A stretch of 20,149 nucleotides of DNA, taken from Candidatus Thorarchaeota archaeon. Lineage in GTDB: Archaea > Asgardarchaeota > Thorarchaeia > Thorarchaeales > Thorarchaeaceae. The notes below the pieces were generated by a model. The model did no database searches and was not told the DNA's origin. It saw only the letters and a list, made by a program, of their open reading frames with translations. Both the position numbers and the translations under genes were made by a program. Numbering within the stretch: the stretch's first letter is position 1; every line of letters starts with the position of its first letter. Positions 1 to 20,149 of this stretch are shown one piece after another. Location: positions 1 through 20,149 of the forward strand of contig PRDH01000032.1 in NCBI GenBank assembly GCA_003345545.1. Direction: 5' to 3'.

Positions 1-3000
1 GCCTTCGCCCTTCTTCTTCTCTTTCCTCAAGAGTGACTCTACGTCCCTTACAAAGGCCTCCATAGAATCAGTTTCCTCTTCGGGCTCTGGCGTTTTCACT
101 GGTTCTTCTGCAACGGGTGTCGATTCCTTCTTCTGCTCTTTCGCAGGGACTGGTTTAGCCTCTTCCTCAATCTCCCAACTTATCTCTTCTTCAGGAGGCG
201 GCGTCGGTGGTGTTGCTTCTTCCCCTTCATGCCCGTCCGATAGACCCATCCCCTGACGCTGAAGGACCGTCTGCACGCCAACTGGTACAATCGCACCCTT
301 GTCCTGAAGGGCGAGAAGCCGGTCAAGAACCTGTGCCTCCGACAACTGTAACATCTCGGATAGTGGAGATAGGAGCTTCCTGAGATAAAACTCCGCTTTG
401 TTATCTCGTACTGCTGCGATGTAATCCAGAATTCTTGCATCTGTCTTTGATACTTTTTGAGTTGGTCCGAATCTATGAGGGAGCAACCAAGAGTAGTTGA
501 ATGCTGCATTCAGGGTCGATACAATCCATTCAGAGTCAAAACAATCAATCAGCCCTGACCAGCTTTCAAGGTCTCTCTCGTATTGATTTTCAAACAGCTC
601 AACAAAGAACTGGAGCCTGTCCTTCAAGAGAGGCGTCATCTCTCCCTCAAGGATGAGGATACCAATGATCTTCTCCCCGCTATAGCTGTTCAGTCTGAGC
701 CCGTGGTACTGAATCTCTTCAAGTGTGCCTCGCACGCCGTCACCCTTGATCTCGCCATATACACTCGTGATTGCTGCAATGAATCCACTGATGAGGTCCG
801 GCTGAATCCGCTCCTCTGTGAAGGGATGATAGAAGACGCATGTACCTCGGTCGAGATAGACTGCCATGAAGTGTCGAAGAGACTCTAGGTCGACAAACAT
901 CTGCAGCTGGTTTTCAAGCGATAGCTTGGCCTCTCTCTTCTTGGGTTTGACAACCCGATTGTAGGCAGCTACCACAATTCCAAGCAGAACAAAGGAACCA
1001 ATAAGGATGCGACCGACAGGTGACATGATGAAGAAGAGGAAAAGCGCCAGAATCGGATTCGTACCGGCACCAACTGTGATGGTTCTCGAGGCGGTCCAGA
1101 GCAGTCGACTGCCGCCAAAGTGAGCTTCCGCCTCTATTGACTCGATGGTTCCGCCTGGAACATAGAAACTCCAAGTTGCAACTCCATAGGAGTTGGTAAT
1201 GTCAGACTGAGCAGAACTATCAAGGACTTGGACTGTTCCGTTCTCAAATGTGATTGTCACTACGAAGTGGACAGTCGCTCCAACGACCGCCTCACTTGTG
1301 TCATTATAGCGCAGGGTGGCACTGAGCGATACAAGTTGTCCTTCTATGCTCGGATTCCCTTCAGACACCAATTCGAGATTGACTCCCCGTTTGCTATCTA
1401 CTGTCAACTCCACGGTATCTGTCGCTGCATTTGCGAGCGGAGCTGTAGCACTCACACTGAGAGTATATACTCCTGGAGCGATGTCCAGCACTATTTCAAT
1501 GACATAGAAACCTGCGGAGTAGACTAGAGTATAGTCAACACCATCTAGGGTCATAGTCACAGTGGCTCCAGTTATTGGTGTATGATGAAGCGTATCATTA
1601 TAGGTAACGGTGACTGTAAGGTTCCATTGTTCATATTCACTGCTCGGCGTATTGATTGAGATTACAGTTGTTGCCCGGACTGTCAGAGTAAGGAATATTG
1701 TGGTTGTCGTGTATCCATATCTGACCATGGTGACATTGACTGGGTAGACGTCCGCAGTCTGCGGCGGTGTGATAGCAATTGCATATTCGCCAGATAAGTA
1801 TTCAATCTCAGTACCGTTGATCGTGATGTATATGACGGCATCATCAATTGGCATGCCATTAGAGTCCTCGACAGTAATGGTCAGAGGAACATTCGTATCG
1901 TAGTCCGTGCTAGCCGAAGAACTTGCCCACGAGTTGCCAACTGATGGAATGTCTTCCATGACTATCAATGTCTGTGTCTCTTGCCCGGGACCAAATCCTA
2001 GACTGCTTGCTCGTATGGTGACTGAGGTCGTGCCAAGGTAGTCGCTACCATTCAGGGTGATTTCCCAACGTTCTGACAATGGATTATAGGTCATGTTCAC
2101 GGTTGGATGACCCACGAAGGTTACCCTGACCCATGTTTCATCGAATATTGGCTCAGAGTTGTAGTTGTAGGTGACGGAGATAGTGATATTCTCAATGAAT
2201 GTGATATTATAATCTGCAGGACTCCATGCCACAGAGAACTCAACACCCGGTTGGCTCGCAATACTGATCGTGAGTGTATCGTCATGTTGGGGGGCGTATC
2301 CTACCTTCCACGCACTTATGTTCAGCGAAATGATGCCTGGAATCTCAGTGAAATTCTCTCCATGAAGCTCTATCCAATACACCTGTCTGATTGCATCCCA
2401 GGCGAGATCATACGTGTTGGACTCATATGTCACATTCACCGAAGCATCTGTGATATTGATCCCGCTCAGGTCTCGATAGGAAACAGTAAGATTCGTGCTC
2501 TCAAGGTAGGTGATGCTACTGCTTGGAGACCAGCTCGAATTCAGCGGGAGAGTTTCGTAGGTAAGATCTACAGTTATCTCAATACTTCTGTTCTCAAGGG
2601 CGTATCCCACTCCGTATACGGTCAGATTATAGATACCACTAGTCATCGAAGATGTATTCACAATAGCTGTCCATCTGCCTCCTCCTACATTCACCATTGA
2701 CTTATTGATTGTACTCCCAAAGGTGTAGTTGAGGCGTGCTATTGGAGGATCCAGACCTCTTACAGGATAGATTTGGTCGAAGTCAATCCCAATGCTGAAA
2801 TTGTTGTCTGTAAATGCCTCGATGTAGTATTCATCTGCATCAAGTGATGTTGGATAGTAGACGAATACCTGTCTGACAAGATAGCCTGCTTCCAACCCAT
2901 TGGTCCAGTAGACTTCTATTGTGTGAGTTCCATTGTAGTCTGCAATCGAATCAATATCCCAAAGGTAGTTCGTGGCACCGTCAGATACTGATGCATTGGG

Positions 3001-4479
3001 GGGCGCATGGATGACGGATCCGCCATACCAAATTGTGAGGTTCGTCGTACCTGAGTTCATATGAGTGCCCATTCCATCCTCTACGCTGATATCGATATCA
3101 ACATCAACAAGAATACTGACCTTGTCTTGAATAGGTTTTGCGTCTGCATGGTTTGATAACTCAATTGAAGTCACGTAGTTGTCTGCAGTATTCGATAATG
3201 TCCACGCACCATTTGTCATATCGGTACAATGAATCGTAGTAGCAATCTCAGTATAATGTCCGTAATCTACTTGTGTGGCATTATACAGTCCCGTAGGGGT
3301 CCAATCATCCGGTACAGTTACATTCACATAACGATTGAGTGACCCTGAAAGCACTGGATATGTGAGCGGCATTGTCACATTCCATTGTATGTCCTCTCCG
3401 GAACTAGCAACGCGCCAAGATGCCGCTACTGATACACTCTTTGTGTATTTGAGCATGAGATCATAGCCTATCTCAACAGATTGATTTGATTGGAAATCAA
3501 TGACTATGATGTTGTCACTATTCGTGAATGTCCATGCAGTATCAGTCAACGTCGTGGCGTTACCTGAGAGATTAATCTGTTCAGCTGAGCTGTAGTCAAT
3601 TGCCGCGTTTGCGGTTTTATTCCATGGTGTATAGGTGTAATTGAGCATTGCCTCAGCCTGTTCGAGACCTGTATAGGCGTACCACGTACTCATTGGATCA
3701 CCAAATAAATGGTATCCGGTAGCCAGTCCAGTTACTGATTTTGAAGCGCTCCACCAAACCATATTGAAGAGCGACGTTCCAGGTACACCTACCATAGTGC
3801 TTCCATCAATAACGACATAATAGTAGGTGCTGGCATTTAGAATTGCATTGTCACCGGAGCAGTCATGTGTAGCGATTTGTTTTGAAAGGGGGTTCTGAAT
3901 CCAAGGCGTTATCCATCCTGTGACATTCTTTGCTTTGTCATTATAGACACTTCTCACGCCCAGGTAAGCTTGCCCATTAGACACATCATAGTAATTCGAT
4001 TTGTAAACGAGAGAGTAGTTCTCAAGTTTGCCATCGTGAGACCGTCCATAGAATGCTTGATAGAGAGCATTTGTGGTCAGCCCCTTCACAGTATCATTCC
4101 ATATCTGTATGTAGTCATTGGCGCCAGGAGTAATCCCCAGCGTTGCTCTCTCAGCTATCGCAGTCATGGAACTAGCTTTCACTTCTACAGCAACGAGAGT
4201 CCATCCAGATACCTGATATGCTGAAAGATTCAATTGGGCTCGATGGCTGAGGTCGTTATAGGAATTAGAAATTCCAAGATTGAGTCCGGTTATCTCTCTG
4301 GTAAAGTAACTGAGAATTGTTGTTGTATCATACCCACCTGCAGATGACTGTTCTCCTCTCCTGACAGCATAGACATCAGTGTTCTGGGCAGCCAGAGGAG
4401 TATCTGCTGAATTCGAGCTGATGATCGGGAATAGGAATATCACTAATGTAATCAGAGTCAAAATCTGTTTCCTTCTCAT
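1..4479 (-). CDS. Giant single-pass surface protein B (at least 1493 aa, 3' end outside window): signal peptide, head domain, ~6 Ig-like repeats, TM, cytoplasmic longin-like + winged-helix-like domains, Pro/Glu-rich tail
   Basis: Not in the ORF track. Hand translation from ATG at 4479 (upstream GAGCGAGGTTATGAT, SD-like GAGGT) is open to position 1. N-terminus MRRKQILTLITLVIFLFPIISSNSA is signal-peptide-like. Collinear with the 2967-aa protein (ALYQAFY..HDGKLENYS, WITP, THDC, YVVIDG, YTYTPWNKT, SNQSV, TNLTIW, NGLEAGY, YYPTS). Hydrophobic PILALFLFFIMSPVGRILIGSFVLLGIVVAAY (961-1053) is followed by basic NRVVKPKKREAK, then LRHFMAVYLDRGTCVFYHPF..PDLISGFIAAITSVYGEI..LEEIQYHGLRLNSYSGEKIIGILIL..LKDRLQFFVELFENQYERDLESWSG. 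Confidence 0.93.
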   Translation of the reverse strand, partial: MRRKQILTLITLVIFLFPIISSNSADTPLAAQNTDVYAVRRGEQSSAGGYDTTTILSYFTREITGLNLGISNSYNDLSHRAQLNLSAYQVSGWTLVAVEVKASSMTAIAERATLGITPGANDYIQIWNDTVKGLTTNALYQAFYGRSHDGKLENYSLVYKSNYYDVSNGQAYLGVRSVYNDKAKNVTGWITPWIQNPLSKQIATHDCSGDNAILNASTYYYVVIDGSTMVGVPGTSLFNMVWWSASKSVTGLATGYHLFGDPMSTWYAYTGLEQAEAMLNYTYTPWNKTANAAIDYSSAEQINLSGNATTLTDTAWTFTNSDNIIVIDFQSNQSVEIGYDLMLKYTKSVSVAASWRVASSGEDIQWNVTMPLTYPVLSGSLNRYVNVTVPDDWTPTGLYNATQVDYGHYTEIATTIHCTDMTNGAWTLSNTADNYVTSIELSNHADAKPIQDKVSILVDVDIDISVEDGMGTHMNSGTTNLTIWYGGSVIHAPPNASVSDGATNYLWDIDSIADYNGTHTIEVYWTNGLEAGYLVRQVFVYYPTSLDADEYYIEAFTDNNFSIGIDFDQIYPVRGLDPPIARLNYTFGSTINKSMVNVGGGRWTAIVNTSSMTSGIYNLTVYGVGYALENRSIEITVDLTYETLPLNSSWSPSSSITYLESTNLTVSYRDLSGINITDASVNVTYESNTYDLAWDAIRQVYWIELHGENFTEIPGIISLNISAWKVGYAPQHDDTLTISIASQPGVEFSVAWSPADYNITFIENITISVTYNYNSEPIFDETWVRVTFVGHPTVNMTYNPLSERWEITLNGSDYLGTTSVTIRASSLGFGPGQETQTLIVMEDIPSVGNSWASSSASTDYDTNVPLTITVEDSNGMPIDDAVIYITINGTEIEYLSGEYAIAITPPQTADVYPVNVTMVRYGYTTTTIFLTLTVRATTVISINTPSSEYEQWNLTVTVTYNDTLHHTPITGATVTMTLDGVDYTLVYSAGFYVIEIVLDIAPGVYTLSVSATAPLANAATDTVELTVDSKRGVNLELVSEGNPSIEGQLVSLSATLRYNDTSEAVVGATVHFVVTITFENGTVQVLDSSAQSDITNSYGVATWSFYVPGGTIESIEAEAHFGGSRLLWTASRTITVGAGTNPILALFLFFIMSPVGRILIGSFVLLGIVVAAYNRVVKPKKREAKLSLENQLQMFVDLESLRHFMAVYLDRGTCVFYHPFTEERIQPDLISGFIAAITSVYGEIKGDGVRGTLEEIQYHGLRLNSYSGEKIIGILILEGEMTPLLKDRLQFFVELFENQYERDLESWSGLIDCFDSEWIVSTLNAAFNYSWLLPHRFGPTQKVSKTDARILDYIAAVRDNKAEFYLRKLLSPLSEMLQLSEAQVLDRLLALQDKGAIVPVGVQTVLQRQGMGLSDGHEGEEATPPTPPPEEEISWEIEEEAKPVPAKEQKKESTPVAEEPVKTPEPEEETDSMEAFVRDVESLLRKEKKKGEG

Positions 4480-4570
4480 ATCATAACCTCGCTCGTGACT
4501 GCTACGTACACATTTGCCAGCCTGCAGCATTAACGATTTGATACTGCACCAATCATTATTACATTTTGAT

Positions 4571-4580
4571 GGTATAAACA
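4571..4580 (-). promoter_or_regulatory. Candidate archaeal TATA box for gene B
   Basis: Minus strand reads TGTTTATACC in an AT-rich 244-bp intergenic gap, about 95 nt upstream of the ATG. An alternative TATATA sits at 4634-4639. Confidence 0.3.
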
Positions 4581-4634
4581 AGCCAGTACTTTGTTATTTG
4601 CTGGTTTGGCAGAAGTTGATTTGCTTCTAATCAT

Positions 4635-4711
4635 ATATAGCTATCTTGGTCTTGTTCATGCTGAAGCTTGACGATAATTACCAAGTAATGATTTATTTTA
4701 GACAGCTATCT
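4635..4711. promoter_or_regulatory. Cluster of palindromes upstream of gene B (candidate operator sites)
   Basis: ATATAGCTATCT (4635-4646) and AGACAGCTATCT (4700-4711) each differ at one position from the perfect palindrome AGATAGCTATCT. Between them lies the imperfect inverted repeat ATAATTAC-CAA-GTAATGAT (4674-4692). Confidence 0.4.
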
Positions 4712-4723
4712 CGAACCCCTGTG

Positions 4724-7700
4724 CTAGCGCTTCTTGATTATTCGACGAGTCCCCTCCCGCACCTCATAGAAACCTGAATCCGAATCAAGCAAATCCTTCA
4801 CAATTGCGCTTGTCTTGCTTGATGATATCCCTAGACGCTTTGAAAGCTCTGATCTGGTCAGCCCAGATTCACTTACTGTGATTGCATCCTTCATTCTGTC
4901 GATTGGGTCAGCTATTGATATTGTTTCAACTGAACTCACCATGCTCGATGTTTCTGTTGATGCTATGACATTCCTTGATAGACTTCTTCTCCGTTTCATG
5001 ATGACAAGGCCTAGAACTGGCAATGAGACTCCTCCTACGACCATTGAGAGCAATATAGGGTCTCTGAAAATCACATCTAACAGACCCAATCCCCCAACCT
5101 TGATCTGCACAGTTCTTGTTTCTGACTCTGCCGGCCAGACAGATATTGACCCTGCATACAAGGCTGTAATCTCCAATCTCGTCGCATCTAGAGGAACACT
5201 AAGAACGACTGATGCAACTCCTGCGTCATCTGTTTCGATGACTTGAGTATGATTCCGCGAATCGCTCTGAGTAAATATCACGACGATGAGTGTTAGTGGA
5301 ACATAGCCCGCAGGCTGCTCATCGTGCTGCACTATCACCGAGATGAGCAATTCACTGCCAGTCAGTATCTCGCCAACGACATTGAGAGTTAGTGCATAGG
5401 TTGATTTTGGCAACACGTGTAGTTCGACCACGCCCACCTTCGCGTCGCAATCAACGGCGTTGGCAGAGATTGAGACAGTGTACGTACCCGGACTGATGTC
5501 ACTCGGTAGCTGGATCGACATGGTGTAGTTCTGCGTAGGTGCATCATACAGCAAGAAATACTGCACTCCCTCAAGTGTGGCCGTGATGACTGCCCAGTCG
5601 ATTGAAACATAATGCACAAGGTCCACGAGTTTTGCTTGAATGATGATTACTTCGTTTTCATACTGGGAGATCTGTGAAATCAATAAGAGTTCAGTAGGTA
5701 TAGGTCTGGCTTCGATTTCCACTATCCCGCTGCCGTTCAAATAGCCGGCAAGTTGGAGAGCAATATCAAAAGTATAGTTGCCCACATGGAGTGAGCTTCC
5801 ACTGATCTGCACCAAGTATGTGCCATTGCCCAGGTCCATGACGCTGTAGGGACCAATCCAATCTACAGAGTAAACCGATCCTGGTATCCCTGTACCTGTT
5901 CTATTGTCGATGTATGCAAATCGTAGTACAATGTCCTCCTGTGCATAAGCGATGTGGCTTGGACTGTATGCCACCTCCGTCGGAATGGGTAGAACACTGA
6001 TGGTAATGGCTTCGTATTGGCTTACAAACCCGAGGGCAGAAACTGTAATGGTCAAGTTGTGTATTCCAATACCGAGCTCCGTTCCTTGGAAGACTGCTGT
6101 CCAACGATCAGTGTCCCATGTGGTTGCTTGCTCAATCCCCCCAAGAGCCAGAATGAGCGTTGCATCTGGAACGAAGCTTGAATTGCTCATCTCGTAATAG
6201 ATGTACACAATCGTTCCTTCATCATGATAGATTGAAGAGCTGAGTACTGACACGTCTAGGGTTGTCGCTGCAGGGAATACGATGAGTGTATTAGAATACC
6301 ATCCATCCACATAACCTGTTTTGTTTGCGGTCACGGTGACATTCCATGCACCTAGACCGATTGCTGTTGCTCTGATACTAAAGTGCCACATTTCATCGAA
6401 TGAGCTATACGTCAGTTCATGTATCGTGCCATTGATTGAGAGGCGAACCGAAGCTCCTAGAATCGCCTTGTAGTCCTGGATGTACACCACGGATACGTTG
6501 ATGATATCAACATAGGTCGGCGCTAGACTAGAGGGCTGCCATGTAACAAGGTACATGTTTGCAGCAGGGCTAATGTTTAGCCCCATGGTAATATGTGTCT
6601 GCAGTGCATATCCGTACAACCAAGCACTGATAGACGCGTCATATGTGCCAATCCCTGTCTGATTTCCAAAAATCGACACTCGCCATGCACCAGAAGAGTA
6701 TGCAAGATTGTAAACTCGACTATTAATCGTTACATTTACGGTTGCGTTTTCTGGCACATCGCCATCATAGAATGTGTAATCTACGGTGACATTGAGAGAG
6801 TCAGTGAATTCGATGGTGAGGTTGAATGGGCTCCAAGTTACCAATAAGGTATTGGTCGTGACTTCGTTGACCGTAAGGGTTTCTGCAGACTCCGCAAAGC
6901 TATATCCATACGCCTGTGCTCGGACTACGATGGAGTGAGGACCTAAATCGAGATAGACTCCAGTCAGACTGACTACCCAGAAGCTGCCCGATTCTAACAA
7001 GGAAAGCGTTACACTGCCATCAATCGTGATATTAGCAATGACACCGCCTTGTGGTACAATGCTACCAGTGCCTGCATATGAGTAATTTGCTGAGAGGTCC
7101 ATCTGTCCAAGGTAGTCAATAGTAATAGCATTCCAAAGCAACTCGAGACTGGTTGATGCCTCAATGATATCAAAGCTGATGTTCGAGTTGGTGGCGAAGT
7201 CATATCCATACTTGCTAATGTTCACCACAACTAGATGATGTCCTAGATCGAATGTGTTGTTGAACTCGAACCAGTAAACGCCGTTCGTGCCTTTGAGAGC
7301 ATACAGCACCCCATCAATAGTAATCGTCTTCAGTATTGCTCCTTCTATCAGCCTTCCGTAATTGTCTCTGTATTCGACCTCCAACACAATACTCTGAGTC
7401 CAGTCAAGAGTTTCGGATATCCATGACGCAATTGCTGAGGTTGGCTCTTCATGAATCGCCAAGGAAGTGGAAGCGGACTGGTCAACATAGACGCTTCCTG
7501 ATGCTTCAATATCCATGATGAAAGAGCCCATACCTGGTGGGTCCATATTGCCATAGAAAGCAAGGCAATAAGCTTGTGCAGATGCATTCCATGCCAATGA
7601 CCAAGAGTCACTACCAATTGACACATCTATTATCGCAGAAGGCACTGGTGATCCGTTGCTCATACGATAGTAGACCATGAGAGTAGTGTGTTCTACGAAA

Positions 7701-10700
7701 CTGATGTCATTGTCACTCGACCAGCTCACTTGAATGGTAGTTGGGTCCCTCCCGACCTCAAGCGTTTCACTGAGGTCCTGTGCAAATACAAATCCATACT
7801 TTGATGCTACTATGGCAAGACCGTGTATCCCAAATCCAGGTACAATGTCTGAGCCATTGAATCTTATGCCATAGGCTTCCTCCGTGGCATTCCAATAGAG
7901 CTTCAACGTCAACAGCTCAATGGTAACATTTACTGGTGCATCAAGTATTGGCGTTCCGTTACTCATCGAATACTCTACGAATAGGTAGGTGTATTCAAAG
8001 TAGGTGATGGTGTTTTGGTATGGATTACTCCATCGTGGTGTGAGCATTGTTGGTTCCTGGACAATCTCTAGGCTCAATGTATTATCATTCAGTGAATCGA
8101 ATCCATCTCTTCCTGCACGGATTTCGAGTTCATGATATCCCAGACCTGGAAGTGAATCAGAGCCGTTGAACATCAGACGATAGGTCTTACTTACTTCGTC
8201 CCAGGCGAGGTCCCAATGATTCGAGCCAATTGTGATATTCACAGATGCAGAGGCAATCGCGGAACCATTTGACATTGTGTAGTTTACTACAAGGATGGTT
8301 GAGTGCACATAGGTGATTATACCACCTCCTATCCAGTAACTCTGAATGTTCACTGATTCCGAGAGGATGACAAGCGTACGGGAGTTGTCCGTTGCATCCT
8401 TGAATCCCTCGTGGAGGAGGTATGTCGCTGAGATATAGAGAACAAAACTGCCCAGTCCGGGCGGGTCCATGTTGCCAGTAAAAGTGTACACGTAGAGTTT
8501 CGATGTTTCATTATACACAGCTTCCCATGTGTGTGTACCTATTCTAATAGTAACGAAAGCATCGATTACAGGCAATCCACTTTCTGTAATTGAAAAGTTG
8601 ATGAATAGAGATGCACTCTCGACGTATGTTATTGTGTTGTTACCGTCAAGCCACCGCGCCTGGATGGAAGTGTCTTCCTGTACAATTGTAAGCGTCTGTG
8701 TAATATCCGAGTGCGCAAGATGGTTCGCCTTCCAGGCAAGCACAAAGAACGTGTGAGGTCCAAGCGCCGGACTTGGTATATCTGCGCCAGTGAATGCAAT
8801 CTCATAGGCTCCCGAACTGCTGTTATACTGAGTCGGGTAGGGTAACACATAGGAGGCATTCACTGTTGCAGTCAGAACTGGAGAACCGTTCAAGTAGCGA
8901 TAGTAGATTCGGAAAACAGTCACATCGAGATAGGATATTGTGCTGCTTGGAATCCATTCAAACGTGATATAGGTGTCCTCAAGTCGTATCGTGAGTTCTT
9001 CCGTGGAGTCCATTGCTGAAATGTATCCAAAGCCTGACGCATATATTGTAACATCAAAAGTCGAATAGTACAATCGAGAGTCATTCCCGTGAATTAGGGT
9101 TTCATATGCGGAGCTTGAGCTGTTCCATACGAGATTCCAAAGATATCCGTTTATGGTCGCATTGAGCACTCCTGTTGCTATGAGCGAGCTATTGCTCATG
9201 ACGAACTGTACAGAAAGCCTTGTTTCACTGAAGTATGTGATGTTGTTGCCGCCAATCCATAAGATAATCAGATCCGTGGATTCCAACTGCTTGGTCAAGC
9301 TCTCAGCAGAGTTAGTCTGGCTCTGAAAATCCGCCAGATGAGCCACGACCAGAACCGGATACGTCGTGAAGTCAAGCGAGCCATCCATTCCAGTGAACGT
9401 TCTTTCGTACGCGTGAGTCACTGAGTTCCAAACAAGAGCAAGCGTGACTCCATTTATTGTGACATTGACAGTTGCGTCCGTAATCCAGGTGTCGTTATAC
9501 ATCCTGTAGAAGGCCTGAAGAGTTGTCTTCTCAACATAAGTTATGGTATCTCCATTCGTCCAGGCAAGATTAAGCAAGGTCGGTATGACTGGAAGTATGA
9601 CTTCTTCATCACTGTTCGTCTGTTCAACAAAGCCGTATTCCCATGCCCTGACCGTCAGTGAATGAGTTCCAACGCCTGGAACCGGATCTGATCCGTTGAA
9701 TCTTAGCTGGTAATACCCTTCGGTTTGATTCCAGGTGAGTTTCCATGTATCATCATCAATTGTTACATTCACTTCAGCATCCAACACTGGTACGTAACTC
9801 CCATATGTGTATTCGACAATTAGGTATGAATAGCTGAAGAAGTCAGGGTTGTTGATTTCATTCGCCCAATGCACTGACAGATATGTGGGTTCTCTTCTCA
9901 GAACTATCTCTTGGGATGAGTTTGATGCTGAATCGAATCCATATCTTGATGCCTCCACTGTCACAGGAAAAGCGCCTAGGATGGGCAGATCGACATCACC
10001 ATCAATAAGAAGATAGTATCTCTGGGCTGTCGAGTTCCATAGCAATGCCCATGGAGCTCCCGCGAACGTGGCGATGACTGTTGCGCCAGTGATTGCGCTA
10101 TTATTGCTGTTCATTAGGTATCTTATTGAGAGTATGCAGCTGTTAGTGTATGTTATGTTATTGGTTGGAATCCACTCTACAGTCAACGTTGTCGGTTCGT
10201 TTACTATGACAAGAGTCTTGCTGCCATAGGCTGTGATGAAGCCAAATCTTGATGCATTGATGATGAGAACATGGCTTCCAAGACCTGGAGGATTATCACT
10301 GCCTGAGAACTCCAGTCGATAGGTTCCCGTGCCTTCGTCCCATGTCAGATTCCAAGTCATAGAATCGATAGTGACTTGGACGAATGCTCCAGCGACTGGT
10401 GCTCCATTGGACATTGTATAGTTGACTGAGAGCAGTGTTGAGCCAACATATGTAATGGTGGATAAGCCCACCCATACTGTGTCGATTGAGGTTGGTTCCT
10501 GTCTCAGAATCAGATCTTGCGTCACATCTATTCGATTGACGAAACCGTACCTGCCAGCTCGCATTGACAGATCATGCCTGCCAAAACCAGGAGGAATATC
10601 TGAGCCATTGTACATGATGACATAGGAGGATGAGCCATCCCATGCCAGTGTCCAAGCATTCCCATCAATTGTGACATTTACATTGGCTCCCATGATGGGC

Positions 10701-13627
10701 GTTTCATCGCTCATCTTGTATGTAACAGTCAGAGTTGTCTGTTGCACGTACGTTATGTTGTTGCCCATTGACCAAGTTATTACGAGTGAAGTGGGCTCCA
10801 GAATCAACGCCAGAACCTCGGAGTCATCAAATCCGTTTCCAAAGCCTGCTTTTGCTGCCACCACTGTTACAGAATGAGCACCGAAGCCGGGATTCACATC
10901 GCTACCATTCAGAGTAAGGTCATACGTCTTGGCCCCTGGATTATAGTGAAGTGTCCAGAATCCCGATCCAATTGATACATTCACTATGGCTCCGACTACG
11001 GTGGAGCCATCTGACATCGTGTAGTTCACAATAAGCACTGTAGACTGTATGTAGGTAATTGTGGTTCCATCAGACCATGTGAGTGTTAGCGACGTCGGTT
11101 CCTCTCTCAGCGTTAGTGAATAGCTTGCATCTTCCTGGCTCTCGTAGCCTAGTCTGCTTGCCAGTATCATGAGTAAGTGAGTCCCAAATCCAGGATTGGT
11201 GTCTGTCCCATTGAACTGAATCCAATATGTACGACTAGTGCCATTCCACTGTAGATGCCAAGTGCTTATTCCATCCGTCACATCGACAGTGGCAAGTGGA
11301 ATAGCAGTGCTGTTAGACATTCGATATTCAACGGATAATATAGAGCACTCAACGAATGTGATGTTTGTCCCGTGCGACCAATTCACAGAGAGCTCCGTGT
11401 ACTCCTCGTGTATGGTGATGTCCTCTGTATCGTTTGATTGGGCCTTGTAGCCAGCCTTCCATGCTCGAATTACTAAATCATAGGTGTCAAATCCCGAAAA
11501 TGTGTCTGTGCCATTGACTGTAATTCTGTAGAGACTTAGGTCTCCGTCCCATGTGAGGGAGAGGACGTTTCCATCAATCGTTACATTTACTGTAGCATCC
11601 GTAATCGCTGTGCCGCCGGCTCTGCGGTATTCGACCAATAGGTCTGTGGCCTGAACATATGAGATGTTATTGGTAGCTGACCACTCGACAGTTAGTGGCT
11701 CCGTGTCATGAATAAGAGTGACGAAGATGGTGAGGCTTTGGTTCTGGATTGCATAACCTTCCGCATAAACAATGATTGAGAATGTGCCATTTGTTCTTTC
11801 GGCTGTTGATACTGAGGCTGTCCATGTTCCATTATTATGGTCAAATAGGCTCGTGTTTGATCCACTAGCAAACGAATAAGCGACAGTAGCTACATCTCCA
11901 TCTAATCCTTGAGGTGTGAAGGTATCCTCAAGATAAACACTGATGGAGAAGGCACTTTCTGTGAATGCATTAATCTGATAGTTCAATGCATTAAAGGAAG
12001 TCGGATAGTATAGAGTCAGGCTCTTGCTTCGATAACCTGCTTCGGTTCCGTTACTCCAGTGCTCTTCTATAGTGTAGAGTCCATTGAATGTTGATGTTTC
12101 GCTTATATTCCACAGATAATGTGTTTTCCCATTTACTACTGACGCGTTGCTCGGAGCCCATATCCTGGTGCCTAGATGCCAGATTGTGAGATTGGTAAAG
12201 CCTGTTGCGACTGGGTCTAGATCCAAATCTGAGAGGGTAGAATTGATATCAATGTTGACAGTCATGTTTGTTTTGGTAGTGATTTCAGTATTGTCCAGCT
12301 GATTAAATGTGCGAATTGACTGAAGAAAATTGTGTGAAGACGAAGTCAATGTCCATGTATCGTTCGCCATGTTCGAACAACGAATTGTTCCATTAAGGCT
12401 CTCATAATCTCCATGGTTGTAACTTGGCGTCGAAGTATTATAGAGCCCCGTAGCAGTCCATGATGTAGGGACGGAAACATTGAGATATCTCTGCTCAGAG
12501 AGAGCTGGATATTCAAGTTCTGTGGTGACATTCCAATTGACCGCATCTCCAAATCCCACAACGTTCCAGCTTGAAAGAGATTGGATTGATTTACGATATA
12601 AAAGTTCCATGCTGAATGAAATATCAACCGACTGATTTGAATTGAAATCAATTGCCACTATATTGGAATCATCATTGAACACCCACTCCAATCCATCAAC
12701 AGGCGAGCTATTCCCTTTGATGTCAATCTGTAATGGATCAAAAAACGTGAGAGCTGCGTTTGTTGTTTTATTCCACGGCGTATACGTGTACTGTAGTTCC
12801 GCTTCTCTGCGGCCTAACCCTACATATTGGTACCATGTGTTATCATTACGATAGTGATATCCTGTGTCTGTTCCAGTTACATCCTGAGCACGCCAGTAAA
12901 TCCAGTTAAACAGCCAAATCCCTGAGCCGATATCTACTCCTATCATTGTTGTTCCATCTATGACAACAAAGTAAGGCATGCTCGCATCAAGTATTGCCGC
13001 ATCAGAAGCACAGTCATGTGTCATAGTCGTGTATGAACTGATCTGGTTGAAAGGCGTAATCCAACTGGTAACGTTTGTTTCTGGATCATCATAAGCGCTC
13101 CTCACAACCAAGTATGCTTTTCCCAGTGCTGTCGAATAGTATGGAGCCTTATAGGCAAAAGAATAGTTCTCGAGTCTACCATCATGAGGCATATTGTAAA
13201 ACTCTTGATACAGTGCATCAGTGACTGCGCCAAGAGTACTATTCTGAATCTGTATGTCACTATTGGGTGTAATTCCCGTTGTTTCACGCTCTGCAGCTGC
13301 TGTTATCGTCATAACATCCATTTCAACACCGTAAAGATCCCAACCCGAAATATGGAAATCTGTAAAATCAATGAGCCCTGTATGTTGGCTCGTGCTTGAA
13401 TATGAGTTGAGAATTCTCAGGGATTGATTATTCACGATTCGGGTCATAAAGGCAGTAGTATTTCTAGTAAGTCCTAGACCGCCCGCAGATGCTAACGTAG
13501 AAGAATCAAGTAATTCAAGGTCTTGTCGGCCTTGTTCAGATGATCTATTCTTCTCTGTGGTAGTTGCTGTAGGTGTGATGAACAGAATGACGAGAATGAC
13601 GGCTACAAGTGCAAATCGTTTCATCAC
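4724..13627 (-). CDS. Giant single-pass surface glycoprotein A (2967 aa): signal peptide, head domain, ~23 Ig-like repeats, TM, C-terminal winged-helix-like domain
   Basis: ORF track. GTG at 13627 is followed by ATG at 13624, with SD-like AGGTGG upstream. Signal peptide MKRFALVAILVILFITPTA. Dense N-x-S/T sequons. TM PILLSMVVGGVSLPVLGLVIM followed by KRRR (positive-inside). C-terminal DPIDRMKDAITVSESGLTRSELSKRLGISSSKTSAIVKDLLDSDSGFYEVREGTRRIIKKR fits helix-HTH-beta-wing. Confidence 0.95.
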   Translation of the reverse strand: MMKRFALVAVILVILFITPTATTTEKNRSSEQGRQDLELLDSSTLASAGGLGLTRNTTAFMTRIVNNQSLRILNSYSSTSQHTGLIDFTDFHISGWDLYGVEMDVMTITAAAERETTGITPNSDIQIQNSTLGAVTDALYQEFYNMPHDGRLENYSFAYKAPYYSTALGKAYLVVRSAYDDPETNVTSWITPFNQISSYTTMTHDCASDAAILDASMPYFVVIDGTTMIGVDIGSGIWLFNWIYWRAQDVTGTDTGYHYRNDNTWYQYVGLGRREAELQYTYTPWNKTTNAALTFFDPLQIDIKGNSSPVDGLEWVFNDDSNIVAIDFNSNQSVDISFSMELLYRKSIQSLSSWNVVGFGDAVNWNVTTELEYPALSEQRYLNVSVPTSWTATGLYNTSTPSYNHGDYESLNGTIRCSNMANDTWTLTSSSHNFLQSIRTFNQLDNTEITTKTNMTVNIDINSTLSDLDLDPVATGFTNLTIWHLGTRIWAPSNASVVNGKTHYLWNISETSTFNGLYTIEEHWSNGTEAGYRSKSLTLYYPTSFNALNYQINAFTESAFSISVYLEDTFTPQGLDGDVATVAYSFASGSNTSLFDHNNGTWTASVSTAERTNGTFSIIVYAEGYAIQNQSLTIFVTLIHDTEPLTVEWSATNNISYVQATDLLVEYRRAGGTAITDATVNVTIDGNVLSLTWDGDLSLYRITVNGTDTFSGFDTYDLVIRAWKAGYKAQSNDTEDITIHEEYTELSVNWSHGTNITFVECSILSVEYRMSNSTAIPLATVDVTDGISTWHLQWNGTSRTYWIQFNGTDTNPGFGTHLLMILASRLGYESQEDASYSLTLREEPTSLTLTWSDGTTITYIQSTVLIVNYTMSDGSTVVGAIVNVSIGSGFWTLHYNPGAKTYDLTLNGSDVNPGFGAHSVTVVAAKAGFGNGFDDSEVLALILEPTSLVITWSMGNNITYVQQTTLTVTYKMSDETPIMGANVNVTIDGNAWTLAWDGSSSYVIMYNGSDIPPGFGRHDLSMRAGRYGFVNRIDVTQDLILRQEPTSIDTVWVGLSTITYVGSTLLSVNYTMSNGAPVAGAFVQVTIDSMTWNLTWDEGTGTYRLEFSGSDNPPGLGSHVLIINASRFGFITAYGSKTLVIVNEPTTLTVEWIPTNNITYTNSCILSIRYLMNSNNSAITGATVIATFAGAPWALLWNSTAQRYYLLIDGDVDLPILGAFPVTVEASRYGFDSASNSSQEIVLRREPTYLSVHWANEINNPDFFSYSYLIVEYTYGSYVPVLDAEVNVTIDDDTWKLTWNQTEGYYQLRFNGSDPVPGVGTHSLTVRAWEYGFVEQTNSDEEVILPVIPTLLNLAWTNGDTITYVEKTTLQAFYRMYNDTWITDATVNVTINGVTLALVWNSVTHAYERTFTGMDGSLDFTTYPVLVVAHLADFQSQTNSAESLTKQLESTDLIILWIGGNNITYFSETRLSVQFVMSNSSLIATGVLNATINGYLWNLVWNSSSSAYETLIHGNDSRLYYSTFDVTIYASGFGYISAMDSTEELTIRLEDTYITFEWIPSSTISYLDVTVFRIYYRYLNGSPVLTATVNASYVLPYPTQYNSSSGAYEIAFTGADIPSPALGPHTFFVLAWKANHLAHSDITQTLTIVQEDTSIQARWLDGNNTITYVESASLFINFSITESGLPVIDAFVTIRIGTHTWEAVYNETSKLYVYTFTGNMDPPGLGSFVLYISATYLLHEGFKDATDNSRTLVILSESVNIQSYWIGGGIITYVHSTILVVNYTMSNGSAIASASVNITIGSNHWDLAWDEVSKTYRLMFNGSDSLPGLGYHELEIRAGRDGFDSLNDNTLSLEIVQEPTMLTPRWSNPYQNTITYFEYTYLFVEYSMSNGTPILDAPVNVTIELLTLKLYWNATEEAYGIRFNGSDIVPGFGIHGLAIVASKYGFVFAQDLSETLEVGRDPTTIQVSWSSDNDISFVEHTTLMVYYRMSNGSPVPSAIIDVSIGSDSWSLAWNASAQAYCLAFYGNMDPPGMGSFIMDIEASGSVYVDQSASTSLAIHEEPTSAIASWISETLDWTQSIVLEVEYRDNYGRLIEGAILKTITIDGVLYALKGTNGVYWFEFNNTFDLGHHLVVVNISKYGYDFATNSNISFDIIEASTSLELLWNAITIDYLGQMDLSANYSYAGTGSIVPQGGVIANITIDGSVTLSLLESGSFWVVSLTGVYLDLGPHSIVVRAQAYGYSFAESAETLTVNEVTTNTLLVTWSPFNLTIEFTDSLNVTVDYTFYDGDVPENATVNVTINSRVYNLAYSSGAWRVSIFGNQTGIGTYDASISAWLYGYALQTHITMGLNISPAANMYLVTWQPSSLAPTYVDIINVSVVYIQDYKAILGASVRLSINGTIHELTYSSFDEMWHFSIRATAIGLGAWNVTVTANKTGYVDGWYSNTLIVFPAATTLDVSVLSSSIYHDEGTIVYIYYEMSNSSFVPDATLILALGGIEQATTWDTDRWTAVFQGTELGIGIHNLTITVSALGFVSQYEAITISVLPIPTEVAYSPSHIAYAQEDIVLRFAYIDNRTGTGIPGSVYSVDWIGPYSVMDLGNGTYLVQISGSSLHVGNYTFDIALQLAGYLNGSGIVEIEARPIPTELLLISQISQYENEVIIIQAKLVDLVHYVSIDWAVITATLEGVQYFLLYDAPTQNYTMSIQLPSDISPGTYTVSISANAVDCDAKVGVVELHVLPKSTYALTLNVVGEILTGSELLISVIVQHDEQPAGYVPLTLIVVIFTQSDSRNHTQVIETDDAGVASVVLSVPLDATRLEITALYAGSISVWPAESETRTVQIKVGGLGLLDVIFRDPILLSMVVGGVSLPVLGLVIMKRRRSLSRNVIASTETSSMVSSVETISIADPIDRMKDAITVSESGLTRSELSKRLGISSSKTSAIVKDLLDSDSGFYEVREGTRRIIKKR
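5100..12010 (-). repeat. Array of ~23 diverged ~100-aa Ig-like beta-sandwich repeats in protein A
   Basis: Recurring consensus EPT.L...W....ITY...T.L.V.Y.MSNG..I..A.V.VTI...W.L.W......Y...F.GSD..PG.G.H.L.I.A...G[FY]. I counted 22 units plus one variant first unit by eye. The repeats are visible at protein level only. The Ig-like fold is inferred from unit length and beta-strand pattern. Confidence 0.85.
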
Positions 13628-13747: not shown

Positions 13748-14257
13748 TTACGTATAGTAGGACGGACCTGCGTCTGTGGCGTCTGCCGGTTTTGGTCCTG
13801 TTTGCCCGGTGATGTCATTCAGGACTGCAATGACCATGTCGATTGCACTATGAAGGCGCCTCGTCGTGTCCCAGAGTTTCTGTTCTGAGAACGCATCATC
13901 ATAGATTCTGTCTGAAACAACAAAGCCCGGTCCTGGCGGTTGAGGCCCTGGTTGCCCCGGCTTTGGTTGAATAAATCCCAGGTTCACATTCTGTGTGAAG
14001 CTGAACTTTAGCGCCTGCATCTGGAACTCTCGGAGTTTCTCAACATTCAGGAGCTTCTGGTGTTGCGGTGAGATCATAATCTGTGCTTCTATCTGAATGT
14101 ACTTCTGGTCATTCGGACGGACCACGGTGAAGAAGAACCGCATGAACTTGACCTTATACAGAAACTCCGCTCTCGGATCTGAGATGCTCTCGACCTTAGT
14201 GCCCTCTCTCGAGAACCAGTCTCGCACGGTTTTCTTGATGTGCTCCAACTCTTCCAC
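13748..14257 (-). CDS. DUF2299-like archaeal conserved protein (169 aa)
   Basis: GTG start with GAGGAG SD. The pattern 'V.DW...EG.KVE...DP.A.F...V......VVRP.......I.ISP.H' and 'RIYDD.FS.Q' resembles DUF2299 from recall, not from a search. Confidence 0.7.
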   Translation of the reverse strand: MEELEHIKKTVRDWFSREGTKVESISDPRAEFLYKVKFMRFFFTVVRPNDQKYIQIEAQIMISPQHQKLLNVEKLREFQMQALKFSFTQNVNLGFIQPKPGQPGPQPPGPGFVVSDRIYDDAFSEQKLWDTTRRLHSAIDMVIAVLNDITGQTGPKPADATDAGPSYYT

Positions 14258-17754: not shown

Positions 17755-19278
17755 TCACTTCTGCGCCTGAAGAGCAAGGTAGACTACGCCCCCTGTGAAC
17801 GCGGACACAATGCGTTTCACTCTATGCCTTTCATCAAGGCTATCCAAGTCTCCGCGAGAGATGCTGATTCTTGTTGCTTCCTCAGCGAAGTATCGAGAGA
17901 CCCATGGCAGATCGCCGAGTGCTGGTCCAAGATTCAATATCTGAAGGATATGAAACGAGGTTTCAAAGCATAGTTGCTCGGTGAACTTGTCCAGCTGCGC
18001 ACCGAGCGAGTCGGTATGTTTTTCGATCAGTTCCATTATTGCATCAAACGAATTGACTATCTCTTCCTCAAGATCATCTGCAGCTAGGGAACTTGACTGC
18101 GTTTTTTCAAGTCGTCGTCTCAAGTTGGCGAGGACAACTCGAAAACGCCTCTCGGGCGAGATCCGAGCCTTCTCGCCAAATCCAGCTCTTCTCTTGCAGT
18201 CCGATAGCTCCTCGTAGAGCTGCAGTGGTCTATCTTCGGATTCCATCACTCTGGCAGCGATCTCAATGTTCTCGCCAGCCAGAATATCGATGAACGCTTC
18301 AAGTGCTTTGTTCTTTCCACTGCCTAGACTCATCCTAAGTAGTCCGCTGTAGTAATCAGCTATTTCTCTCACCAGAAATGACGTGAATTCTCTCTCGGTC
18401 CATACCTGCTCTTTCCCTTGAATCGTTGAGAAGAATAGAGAACAAGTGGTCATTTTGGATGCGGCTCTACGCAGCACATCAATTGTTGATATTAGCCTTC
18501 CAAAGACTCTCGCGGTTCCCACTAGAGGCCAGTCGAATGGACTACTTGAGCCGCCTCCTGAGATCTGGTACGCAAGAGATGCTCTTGTCTGCATTGTGAT
18601 GATATAGAGTGTGGTTTCCTCAATGAGTCTGTGTTCTGGGAGGTTGAAGACCTTATCAAGATCGAAGGGGCAATTGGATGCCTTCATCACCATTAGTGCA
18701 ATCAATGCTCGGATTCTGTTTTTCCTCATCGAATCGTCGATTACATACCCGCTGTCAAGACCTGAGATTTCGAAGTACTCCTCGACAAATCCTCTATTGA
18801 TTAGTTCTAGCGACATGATCCTGTTGAGCACAGCACGCGACTCGTCTGAGGTCAACAAATTCTCCACTAGTGTTTCTAATCCTTGGTTTTCAATTTCACT
18901 GGGAAGAATAGTGGGACGTGCGCAGATTTTCGGAAGTATCATAATCCAGAGCATGGCGAGTGCACTACGTTTCCCAGCGAGAATCGCCTGCTCTTCTGTT
19001 TCCAGATAATCAATATTCGGTTTGAATCCTGCCCAGACTGGCACTGACATTAGAAACTTGACCTCGTCATCGTCCTGCAAAGCCCGTACGAGGATGTGCC
19101 TTTTCACAGATTCGAGGAGGTTAAACGGTTTGGCCCTCGTTTCAGAGGAGCTGGCAATGCCCAATTCATCACGAATTTCAATAGCATCCTTCTTCTGGAA
19201 CTCAGAGATTACTCCGAAGGCATAGCTCTGATGAAGATTATTGACAGCAAACTTGACAATCTCTGTCAGTTCTTTCAT
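17755..19278 (-). CDS. Hypothetical, mostly alpha-helical protein (507 aa)
   Basis: Long ORF. Its ATG overlaps the upstream stop (TGATG at 19276-19280). No motif recognised. Confidence 0.85.
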   Translation of the reverse strand: MKELTEIVKFAVNNLHQSYAFGVISEFQKKDAIEIRDELGIASSSETRAKPFNLLESVKRHILVRALQDDDEVKFLMSVPVWAGFKPNIDYLETEEQAILAGKRSALAMLWIMILPKICARPTILPSEIENQGLETLVENLLTSDESRAVLNRIMSLELINRGFVEEYFEISGLDSGYVIDDSMRKNRIRALIALMVMKASNCPFDLDKVFNLPEHRLIEETTLYIITMQTRASLAYQISGGGSSSPFDWPLVGTARVFGRLISTIDVLRRAASKMTTCSLFFSTIQGKEQVWTEREFTSFLVREIADYYSGLLRMSLGSGKNKALEAFIDILAGENIEIAARVMESEDRPLQLYEELSDCKRRAGFGEKARISPERRFRVVLANLRRRLEKTQSSSLAADDLEEEIVNSFDAIMELIEKHTDSLGAQLDKFTEQLCFETSFHILQILNLGPALGDLPWVSRYFAEEATRISISRGDLDSLDERHRVKRIVSAFTGGVVYLALQAQK

Positions 19279-20149
19279 CAGTCGCCCTCCTGTGATAGCC
19301 TATCTAAGACCTCTTCCTTGGATGTCCGCTTCTTGAGACCGGTTTTGATGAAGTGAAGCATCTCGATAATCGCTTCTTCCACGGTCGTTTCAGTTCCTGC
19401 TCCCATGAGTTTCGTGAATACAAGGCAATTCAGTTGACTCTCTAGCTCAGTTTCATCAGGACATGAAACTCCAGATTCACCTCTAAGATAGAGTGCCCGA
19501 TTGAGCACGCGGTAGTCGACTTCGACTACCCTGCCGTAGGGGTGTTTCTCATTTCTTACGTAGATACGCCGGCGTGGTGCCAATCCAAAGAAGTCTATAT
19601 CTTCCAAGAGCTTCATGAGCCTGGCCTGAAGAAAGGAACTGGATGCGTAGGCTCTCCTGAGTTCTGAGAGAGGCATATGTCCCGATAGACGCCGTGCCAG
19701 CTCAATCTCCTTGGAGTAGCTCATTTCTTCAACGGTTAGACCAGAGTCCTTCAGAAAATCCTCAGAGTGAAAACTTCCAAGTGTGTCAACTGTGATCTGG
19801 ACCGACTTTCCCTTACCCGTTTCATCGAGCATGAATCCCTTACTGATGTCAAGAGACCGAACATCCTCTGGACGGAAGCTGGATAAGGTCATTCCAAACC
19901 TCTCGTTCTGAGTCACCTCAATCAGGATTGCATCTACCGATGTTTCTTGACCTGAGCAGTAGAAGATCCCTGGAATGAAGGCATACAGGTTCATAGAATC
20001 TTGGCCGTCTAGCAAGCTGTCAAGAGGAATCGAGCCATGAGGTTTGTCATTTGAGGCCTCATTCTCTTTGCTTTCACTGGATGCCAAAAGGGCATCATCA
20101 ACTTCACCCTCACCTTGTCCAGTCTCTAGTTGATCTTCCAGTTTCGAGT
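19278..20149 (-). CDS. Hypothetical protein, 5'-truncated (at least 289 aa visible)
   Basis: The frame stays open past the track's TTG at 20087 to the window edge (SKLEDQLETGQGEGEVDDALLASSESK...). An acidic linker is followed by a globular C-terminal region. No family recognised. Confidence 0.85.
   Translation of the reverse strand, partial: SKLEDQLETGQGEGEVDDALLASSESKENEASNDKPHGSIPLDSLLDGQDSMNLYAFIPGIFYCSGQETSVDAILIEVTQNERFGMTLSSFRPEDVRSLDISKGFMLDETGKGKSVQITVDTLGSFHSEDFLKDSGLTVEEMSYSKEIELARRLSGHMPLSELRRAYASSSFLQARLMKLLEDIDFFGLAPRRRIYVRNEKHPYGRVVEVDYRVLNRALYLRGESGVSCPDETELESQLNCLVFTKLMGAGTETTVEEAIIEMLHFIKTGLKKRTSKEEVLDRLSQEGD

Follow-up and report, generated by a model that had tools for sequence, protein, structure and literature searches.

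Paired giant surface proteins of a Thorarchaeota archaeon, one with a predicted longin domain in its tail

Introduction

Small GTPases use longin and roadblock domains as platforms, and eukaryotic longins lie at the cytoplasmic face of membranes, where they dock small GTPases or parts of coats (PMC3747258). Asgard genomes also encode longin families resembling NPRL2, and these are reported to be fused to two-component signalling domains (bioRxiv 10.1101/2020.10.19.343400). At the cell surface, cultured Lokiarchaeia carry complex, unidentified proteins on a single membrane and lack the ordered S-layer of other archaea (PMC9834061). Here we describe two adjacent genes of a Candidatus Thorarchaeota archaeon (GenBank assembly GCA_003345545.1), which we will term A and B. 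They are predicted to encode giant surface proteins that share a head but differ in the length of the stalk and in the cytoplasmic tail, and the tail of B appears to contain a longin domain. The window that we analyzed is an entire contig of 20,149 bp (PRDH01000032.1, or C32) from a genome of 2.69 Mb that is 93% complete.

Our preferred account is that this tandem pair descends from a B-like gene, that the heads bind something outside the cell, and that the tail of B holds a conserved partner, which would couple the surface to internal machinery. We give this account, taken as a whole, slightly less than an even chance.

The gene pair and its membrane topology

The two genes and their predicted membrane helices are:

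4724..13627, minus strand: gene A, 2967 amino acids (aa), from the list of open reading frames and its translation; orthologues have 2554-3362 aa and the same tail
1..4479, minus strand: gene B, at least 1493 aa, its 3' end cut by the contig end; full orthologues have 1513-1849 aa and adjoin A-type genes
4994..5059, minus strand: membrane helix of A (aa 2857-2878, then KRRR), from a hydropathy scan
949..1056, minus strand: hydrophobic juxtamembrane stretch and membrane helix of B (aa 1142-1177, then KPKKRE), from a hydropathy scan

A and B are co-oriented on the minus strand and together fill positions 1-13627. The start codon of A is GTG, with an ATG one codon further in. The frame of B covers 1-4581 and continues past the edge of the window; translation probably begins at the ATG at 4479. 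The 3' end of B is not in this assembly, since the window is the whole contig; B is nearly complete, as its orthologues end about 10-30 residues past the last residue seen here. The two proteins are 38% identical over about 1030 aligned residues (BLASTP, E = 0). A previous reading of the window from its sequence only had described two adjacent, co-oriented, paralogous genes, and we recovered both frames and the alignment between them.

Both proteins have a hydrophobic, signal-like N-terminus and a single C-proximal membrane helix, which is followed by a basic cluster. N-glycosylation sequons are dense in the ectodomains (95 in A and 38 in B, or 3.4 per 100 aa) and nearly missing from the tails (0 and 1, respectively). 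Also, soluble homologues of the tail of B lack signal peptides. A and B thus read as type-I single-pass membrane proteins with the C-terminus inside, and the best explanation is that they are giant cell-surface proteins, predicted to be heavily N-glycosylated. The tails are folded and read as cytoplasmic, rather than unstructured or extracellular, which would have spoken against the sequence-only reading. No S-layer family from Pfam matched A, B, or the family members that we scanned, which still allows for an S-layer role; we found no paper that assigns this family to an S-layer.

Between the stop codon of A and the ATG of B lies an AT-rich spacer of about 245 bp (4480-4723) with a TATA-like stretch, and B may have its own promoter there. 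In two wetland metatranscriptome libraries, short contigs that are at least 99% identical fall inside A (X7) and B (X9). Given uncovered stretches and possible DNA carry-over, transcription of A and B is hinted at only.

Ectodomains

Outside the membrane, the parts of the two proteins are:

11993..13552, minus strand: head of A (aa 26-545), family-specific, with no PDB or Pfam match
11708..11992, minus strand: immunoglobulin (Ig)-like unit that closes the head of A (aa 546-640)
5414..11707, minus strand: stalk of A (aa 641-2738), 21 repeats in tandem, each of about 100 aa, from the repeat hidden Markov model (HMM)
5060..5413, minus strand: membrane-proximal beta-sandwich of A (aa 2739-2856), Pfam MG4 at 25.6 bits versus a cut-off of 24.7, collinear with B
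2557..4404, minus strand: head of B including its closing Ig-like unit (aa 26-641), from its identity to the head of A
1396..2556, minus strand: stalk of B, 4 repeats (aa 642-1028), from the repeat HMM
1057..1395, minus strand: membrane-proximal beta-sandwich of B (aa 1029-1141), with a weak CarboxypepD_reg match, collinear with A

The common head comprises about 640 aa, including the closing Ig-like unit, and the heads alone are 43-45% identical. We built the repeat HMM by iterating from one repeat of A, and the units of A each match it with E values of 1e-7 to 1e-38. A and B are collinear again next to the membrane: their last two membrane-proximal domains and the membrane helix align with 28% identity (E 2e-15). 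This alignment contains the motifs that the sequence-only reading had quoted when it proposed that the last two repeats are collinear. That reading had also proposed the same head on stalks of different lengths, with about 23 units in A and about 6 in B. Its counts agree with ours (21 and 4) once the terminal MG4-like or CarboxypepD_reg-like domain and the Invasin_D3-like unit of the head are included. The heights of 90 and 25 nm that it gave for the two heads assume fully extended stalks.

As for the fold of the head, a profile search of PDB sequences and Pfam scans of 30 family members gave nothing beyond the weak Ig-like unit, which matches Invasin_D3 in 9 of the 30 members (best E 6.9e-6, below the cut-off). 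Among the Pfam matches to these parts, MG4 alone exceeds its cut-off, in one domain, and CarboxypepD_reg, Invasin_D3, PEGA, and Big_13 fall below theirs.

Giant repeat stalks with dense sequons are also what might be expected of structural surface fibres or adhesins. A and B could form a glycoprotein coat or adhesive filaments, with tails that anchor, sort, or place them (for example, on a cytoskeletal or membrane-remodelling scaffold) and do no signalling. This is the main rival to our account, and we consider it somewhat unlikely. It is favoured by the precedent of Lokiarchaeia, which have surface proteins without an ordered S-layer (PMC9834061), and by Pfam scans of the two tails, which showed neither an enzymatic domain nor a classical output domain for signalling. 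The conservation of the tails, discussed below, also bears on it.

The tail of B

To return to the proposal that the tail of B holds a conserved partner, we consider the parts of this tail, which extends for at least 316 aa beyond the membrane helix:

481..918, minus strand: longin domain of B (aa ~1188-1333), from an AlphaFold2 model and structure matches
241..480, minus strand: winged helix after the longin (aa ~1334-1413), with a predicted local distance difference test (pLDDT) score above 95 here and a weak NirdL-like_HTH match
64..240, minus strand: acidic, proline-rich, low-complexity linker, from the translation; its length varies among orthologues
28..63, minus strand: terminal helix motif MEAFVRDVESLL, conserved in orthologues and doubled in some

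The AlphaFold2 model of the tail was built from an alignment of 44 sequences, including distant tails and soluble relatives, and it has a pLDDT of 91.5 and a predicted template modelling score of 0.86. In order, the model has a helix, then beta-beta-alpha-beta-beta-beta-alpha, and then a helical winged-helix unit. A Foldseek search with the model gave 19 matches at E <= 1e-3, all of them longins. The modelled longin superimposes on Sec22b with Z = 13.8 and a root-mean-square deviation (rmsd) of 2.8 Å over 123 of 127 residues, followed by Fuzzy (Z = 13.1), VAMP7 (Z = 12.9), and a longin from Lokiarchaeota (PDB 8yqg, Z = 12.4). Foldseek and two VIA-align searches also returned TRAPP subunits, the N-termini of AP sigma and mu, and SRX. 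As modelled, then, aa ~1188-1333 of B is a longin domain at the level of the fold. The sequence-only reading had described this tail as longin-like, winged helix-turn-helix (wHTH)-like, and low-complexity, and the confident model, its longin matches, and the acidic linker bear this out. (A first model of this tail, made from 18 close sequences, had a pLDDT of 55.8 and no Foldseek match at E <= 1e-3, and was replaced.)

A related question is which longin family it belongs to. Chains of GATOR1 or SEA (8fw5_D, 8adl_S, 9o5a_H, and 9o5d) appear in Foldseek at E values of 1e-3 to 2e-3, some of them over 258-286 columns. The NPRL chains are not among the best 50 by Z in the VIA search, and their long alignments have an rmsd of 12-14 Å. 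Because the GATOR1 chains reach only E ~1e-3 and lie outside the best matches by Z, we name the domain simply a longin, which may or may not be "NPRL2-like." By sequence, the tail falls into no Pfam family. It has no match to Robl_LC7 (PF03259) at E <= 1 (hmmscan), and it is not a member of the Roadblock/LC7 family by that measure. This genome encodes 11 Robl_LC7 proteins, and the profile of the tail does align with theirs over 87 columns (probability 62.9%, E 7e-5); in a control, 20 of 20 column shuffles had probabilities below 1%. This suggests a remote superfamily relation to Robl_LC7 rather than membership. A search of PDB sequences with the tail (phmmer) gave nothing significant, and an Atlas feature search matched unnamed Asgard clusters only. 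A motif scan found no other copy of the terminal helix motif in this genome. A prediction of a complex of two copies of the tail scored 0.00, which has no bearing on whether the tail dimerises.

Between B-type orthologues, identity in the longin is 70-96% where that in the heads has dropped to 32-49%, and in the winged helix it is 35-87%. Judging from these alignments, the longin is the most constrained part of B, which argues for a conserved cytoplasmic partner. This conservation also tells against purely structural surface fibres, as no extracellular part comes close to the longin in conservation, although a tail that is merely anchored to a conserved partner would be expected to look alike. 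Furthermore, the soluble members of the longin family include a GTPase fusion in this genome, which hints at something beyond a passive anchor. On the other side, the structural explanation is helped by the retention of gene A in this lineage despite the loss of its longin (see below).

The tail of A

The predicted cytoplasmic part of A is short:

4727..4993, minus strand: cytoplasmic tail of A, 89 aa, a linker and a wHTH; kept in A-type orthologues

When searched alone (aa 2880-2967), this tail matches HTH_24 (PF13412) at 25.2 bits, above the cut-off of 21.9; in a scan of the whole 2967-aa protein the same match has 18.9 bits, which is below it. MarR_2 and TrmB match the isolated tail more weakly. 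No significant match was found among PDB sequences (phmmer, best E 0.28), and a comparison of this wHTH with the winged helix of B showed no relation (hhalign, probability 2.4%). The wHTH is 30-56% identical among orthologues, so that it diverges about as fast as the head of A. The earlier description of this tail as wHTH-like only holds, given the HTH_24 match and the lack of a match to the model of the B tail (E 0.27).

These matches raise the possibility that A is a membrane-tethered transcription regulator, whose wHTH would bind DNA at the membrane or after a cleavage that frees the 89-aa tail, so that the ectodomain reports surface events to gene expression. Besides the HTH_24 match and the weaker ones to MarR_2 and TrmB, two features fit this idea: the tail is basic at both ends, and of the elements of the A-type tails, only the wHTH persists in all of them as the longin decays. 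Nevertheless, we think that this weaker rival is quite unlikely. The sequence searches identified no significant solved relative of the tail, and its orientation is opposite to that of ToxR and CadC. Also, the winged helices of Asgard ESCRT-II-like and NPRL-like proteins are protein-binding modules.

History of the pair

Some A-type tails from other lineages retain traces of a longin. Four A-type tails compare with the model of the B tail as follows:

P0093: matches longin and winged helix, E 4e-7
P0054: matches half a longin, E 1e-11
P0082: matches winged helix only, E 2e-5
Tail of A in the window: no match, E 0.27

In P0093, P0054, and P0082, the B-like remnants precede the terminal wHTH. 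The A-type tails read as a decay series of a B-like tail, and the remnant longin suggests that A is a duplicate of a B-like gene. It looks like A arose from such a gene by tandem duplication, after which its stalk grew to about 20 repeats, a terminal wHTH was gained, and, in this lineage, the longin and the first winged helix were lost. That B is the older form of the pair is the best explanation.

The heads tell a different story. For three lineages, head trees join the A heads and the B heads of that lineage in a single clade (support of 99-100%), and forcing the A heads into a single clade costs 324.5 log-likelihood units (P value of the approximately unbiased test, p-AU, 3e-81). The terminal wHTH is homologous across lineages. 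As the heads group by lineage while the wHTH is shared across lineages, the simplest reading of these trees is that the neighbouring genes of a lineage have repeatedly exchanged their heads or homogenised them by gene conversion. There is no recent conversion tract in the window, where the A and B genes have one 14-mer in common.

The order DUF2299 gene, A, B, and a gene for a soluble protein of about 100 aa was kept in 5 of the 5 A-type loci that we looked up. Conserved order and lineage-wise clustering of the heads could also mean that A and B form one heteromeric complex, whose heads co-evolve because they touch each other or bind the same ligand; in that case, the clustering would come from selection for matched heads, with some help from gene conversion. 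The lack of recent conversion tracts does not favour this weaker rival, and neither does the occurrence of B-type genes without A in several near-complete genomes of the family, which implies that B works without A. For example, G055 (97% complete) has a single B-type gene at the same site, and G075 has a single B-type gene at another site. On balance, we regard a heteromeric complex as improbable. These B-only genomes also mean that the tandem arrangement, whose conservation the sequence-only reading had proposed to tabulate, holds at each A-type locus that we looked up but is not universal.

Distribution and relatives

A profile of the head found just 119 clusters among 1.84 billion representative proteins, and every family member with both ends intact has one of two layouts. 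A-types have 2500-3400 aa and a wHTH tail, and B-types have 1460-2170 aa and a tail with a longin, a winged helix, and the terminal motif. Orthologues have 17-25 repeats (A-types) or 4-11 (B-types). In the head search and tabulation of tails suggested by the sequence-only reading, all complete homologues have a tail, rather than mostly lacking one. That reading's expectation of a conserved head with interchangeable cytoplasmic modules goes too far, as there are just two types of tail, and that of A is a reduced derivative rather than an alternative module.

Our survey of the phylum covered 301 genomes. The full head was present in 55 of the 76 from the window's family, and weakly in one from a sister family; otherwise, outside the window's family, only the C-terminal half of the head (positions ~280-630) matches. 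The best explanation is that the full head is specific to one family of Thorarchaeota. The longin-winged helix module of the tail is much more widespread (145 of 151 genomes of the phylum), and in other families it also closes frames of 1000-2250 aa.

This genome also encodes two type-I surface proteins with a membrane helix and a longin-like tail (C21:38883-39218, in a 1560-aa frame, and C26:63740-64051, in a 1167-aa frame). Their distal heads are unlike those of A and B, with which they have the C-terminal half of the head in common. Soluble homologues of the B tail are encoded by a tandem pair of longin and winged-helix proteins of 300 and 275 aa (C24:7808-9537, or L002:1450-3179), on which alone we saw a weak HTH_NPRL3 match; a Robl_LC7 gene lies about 1 kb away (C24:10458-10718). 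The GTPase-fused relative of the B tail is on contig C17. In two other genomes, soluble relatives of the tail module (G134:C38:6199-6894 and G093:C66:3516-4196) cross a single in-frame TGA, which may reflect an error in sequencing, pseudogenisation, or recoding.

Gene neighborhood

One neighbour of the pair is found in all of the loci that we looked up, in the same position:

13748..14257, minus strand: DUF2299 gene, 169 aa (Pfam DUF2299, E 1e-12), directly upstream of A and co-oriented with it

In G055, it lies in front of the single B-type gene. The DUF2299 protein could be a chaperone or partner. On the other side of the pair, the soluble protein of about 100 aa, which has no Pfam family, follows the B-type gene at L030:23852-24160, L033:24892-25212, and L036:24948-25247, and also in G055. 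It is not in this assembly, as the contig ends inside B. At the far end of the window are two co-oriented genes on the minus strand (17755-19278 and 19278-20087) whose proteins of 507 and 269 aa have no Pfam family. In related loci, genes for proteins of about 370 and 510 aa, which match this pair in size and position, lie beside genes for 2-oxoacid:ferredoxin oxidoreductase.

Proposed function

We propose that A and B present their heads at two distances from the membrane, where these would bind a ligand outside the cell or a second surface, and that the longin and winged helix of B would hold a conserved cytoplasmic partner at that point of the membrane. By analogy with the role of other longins as platforms (PMC3747258), and given the GTPase-fused relatives in this genome, this partner would most plausibly be a small GTPase or a roadblock/longin-type protein. 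Its binding would tie contact at the surface to machinery inside the cell. The contribution of A would be a longer reach, its wHTH providing a link that is reduced or of another kind.

Several points weigh against this proposal. We found no partner, ligand, or signal for A or B, and there is no GTPase gene in the window or beside the pair in the loci that we looked up. As the head has no fold assignment, its binding is assumed from its position only. The topology is based on simple hydropathy, charge, and sequon counts. A role in anchoring or sorting alone would account just as well for how strongly the longin is conserved. Finally, repeated duplication with retention of the tail is an alternative to gene conversion that the head tree cannot separate from it. 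The sequence-only reading had gone further and described modular contact-sensing receptors with different outputs; the anatomy that it saw (a shared head, stalks of different lengths, and folded tails) holds up, while the sensing and the outputs remain conjecture.

A more specific possibility is that B and its many Asgard relatives with other ectodomains are outside-in receptors, in which engagement of the head would alter how the platform of longin and winged helix binds or regulates a small GTPase, and that A and B together sense at two heights, with gene conversion keeping their heads matched. We consider this unlikely. If it is true, then such a receptor would foreshadow, in a prokaryote, the way in which eukaryotes couple adhesion receptors to GTPases or trafficking machinery. 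Under our broader proposal of a conserved partner behind a binding head, B is a testable candidate for the route by which Asgard cells connect encounters with partners or particles to the machinery inside. A and B also lend themselves to comparison, since they have the same head on a full tail and on a decayed one, and they show an unusual homogenisation of heads between tandem paralogues.

Comparison with known systems

The closest structural matches to the B longin are 8yqg and the eukaryotic longins (Sec22b, VAMP7, and Ykt6; Fuzzy, Mon1, and Ccz1; Bet5, Trs23, and sedlin of TRAPP; AP sigma and mu; and SRX), which have the same fold (Z of 11-14 and rmsd of about 3 Å over 115-134 residues). 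In contrast, the sequence identity of B to these longins is only about 10%, and in no case is the longin preceded by a giant ectodomain and a membrane helix. In longin SNAREs, for instance, the order is reversed, with the longin first, then the SNARE motif and a C-terminal anchor, and there is no ectodomain. The NPRL2-like longins of Asgard archaea and NPRL2 and NPRL3 of GATOR1 resemble the tail of B in that a longin is followed by small winged-helix-type domains. In the Asgard fusions described so far, the partners are two-component signalling domains, whereas in B the partner is a surface ectodomain; and we see no DEPDC5 or Rag context as in GATOR1.

From the outside, A and B resemble giant Ig-repeat adhesins from bacteria and archaea (invasin and intimin, or the Bap and SiiE types), which also have a signal peptide, a distal head, and a long beta-sandwich stalk with a variable number of repeats. 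However, the chain of these adhesins stops at the anchor or shortly after it, with no folded, conserved domain in the cytoplasm, and the Pfam matches of A and B to such families are weak. As in ToxR and CadC, integrins, cadherins, and Notch, one pass through the membrane joins an external domain to a small cytoplasmic module (the wHTH, in the case of A). A is not of the ToxR/CadC type: those proteins have an N-terminal wHTH of the OmpR type, while that of A is C-terminal and of the HTH_24/MarR type. We found no sequence relation of A or B to any eukaryotic receptor, and the resemblance is one of layout only.

In the literature that we could read, we found no paper on a giant ectodomain that is joined by one membrane helix to a longin, in agreement with the sequence-only reading, which knew of no described system that matches the pair. 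A and B combine two known kinds of protein, the repeat adhesins and the longin modules of Asgard archaea. What is specific to this finding is the conserved pair itself, the decay of the A tail, the single-gene state in some genera, and the clustering of the heads by lineage. The layout of A and B suggests a possible link between the cell surface and internal machinery.

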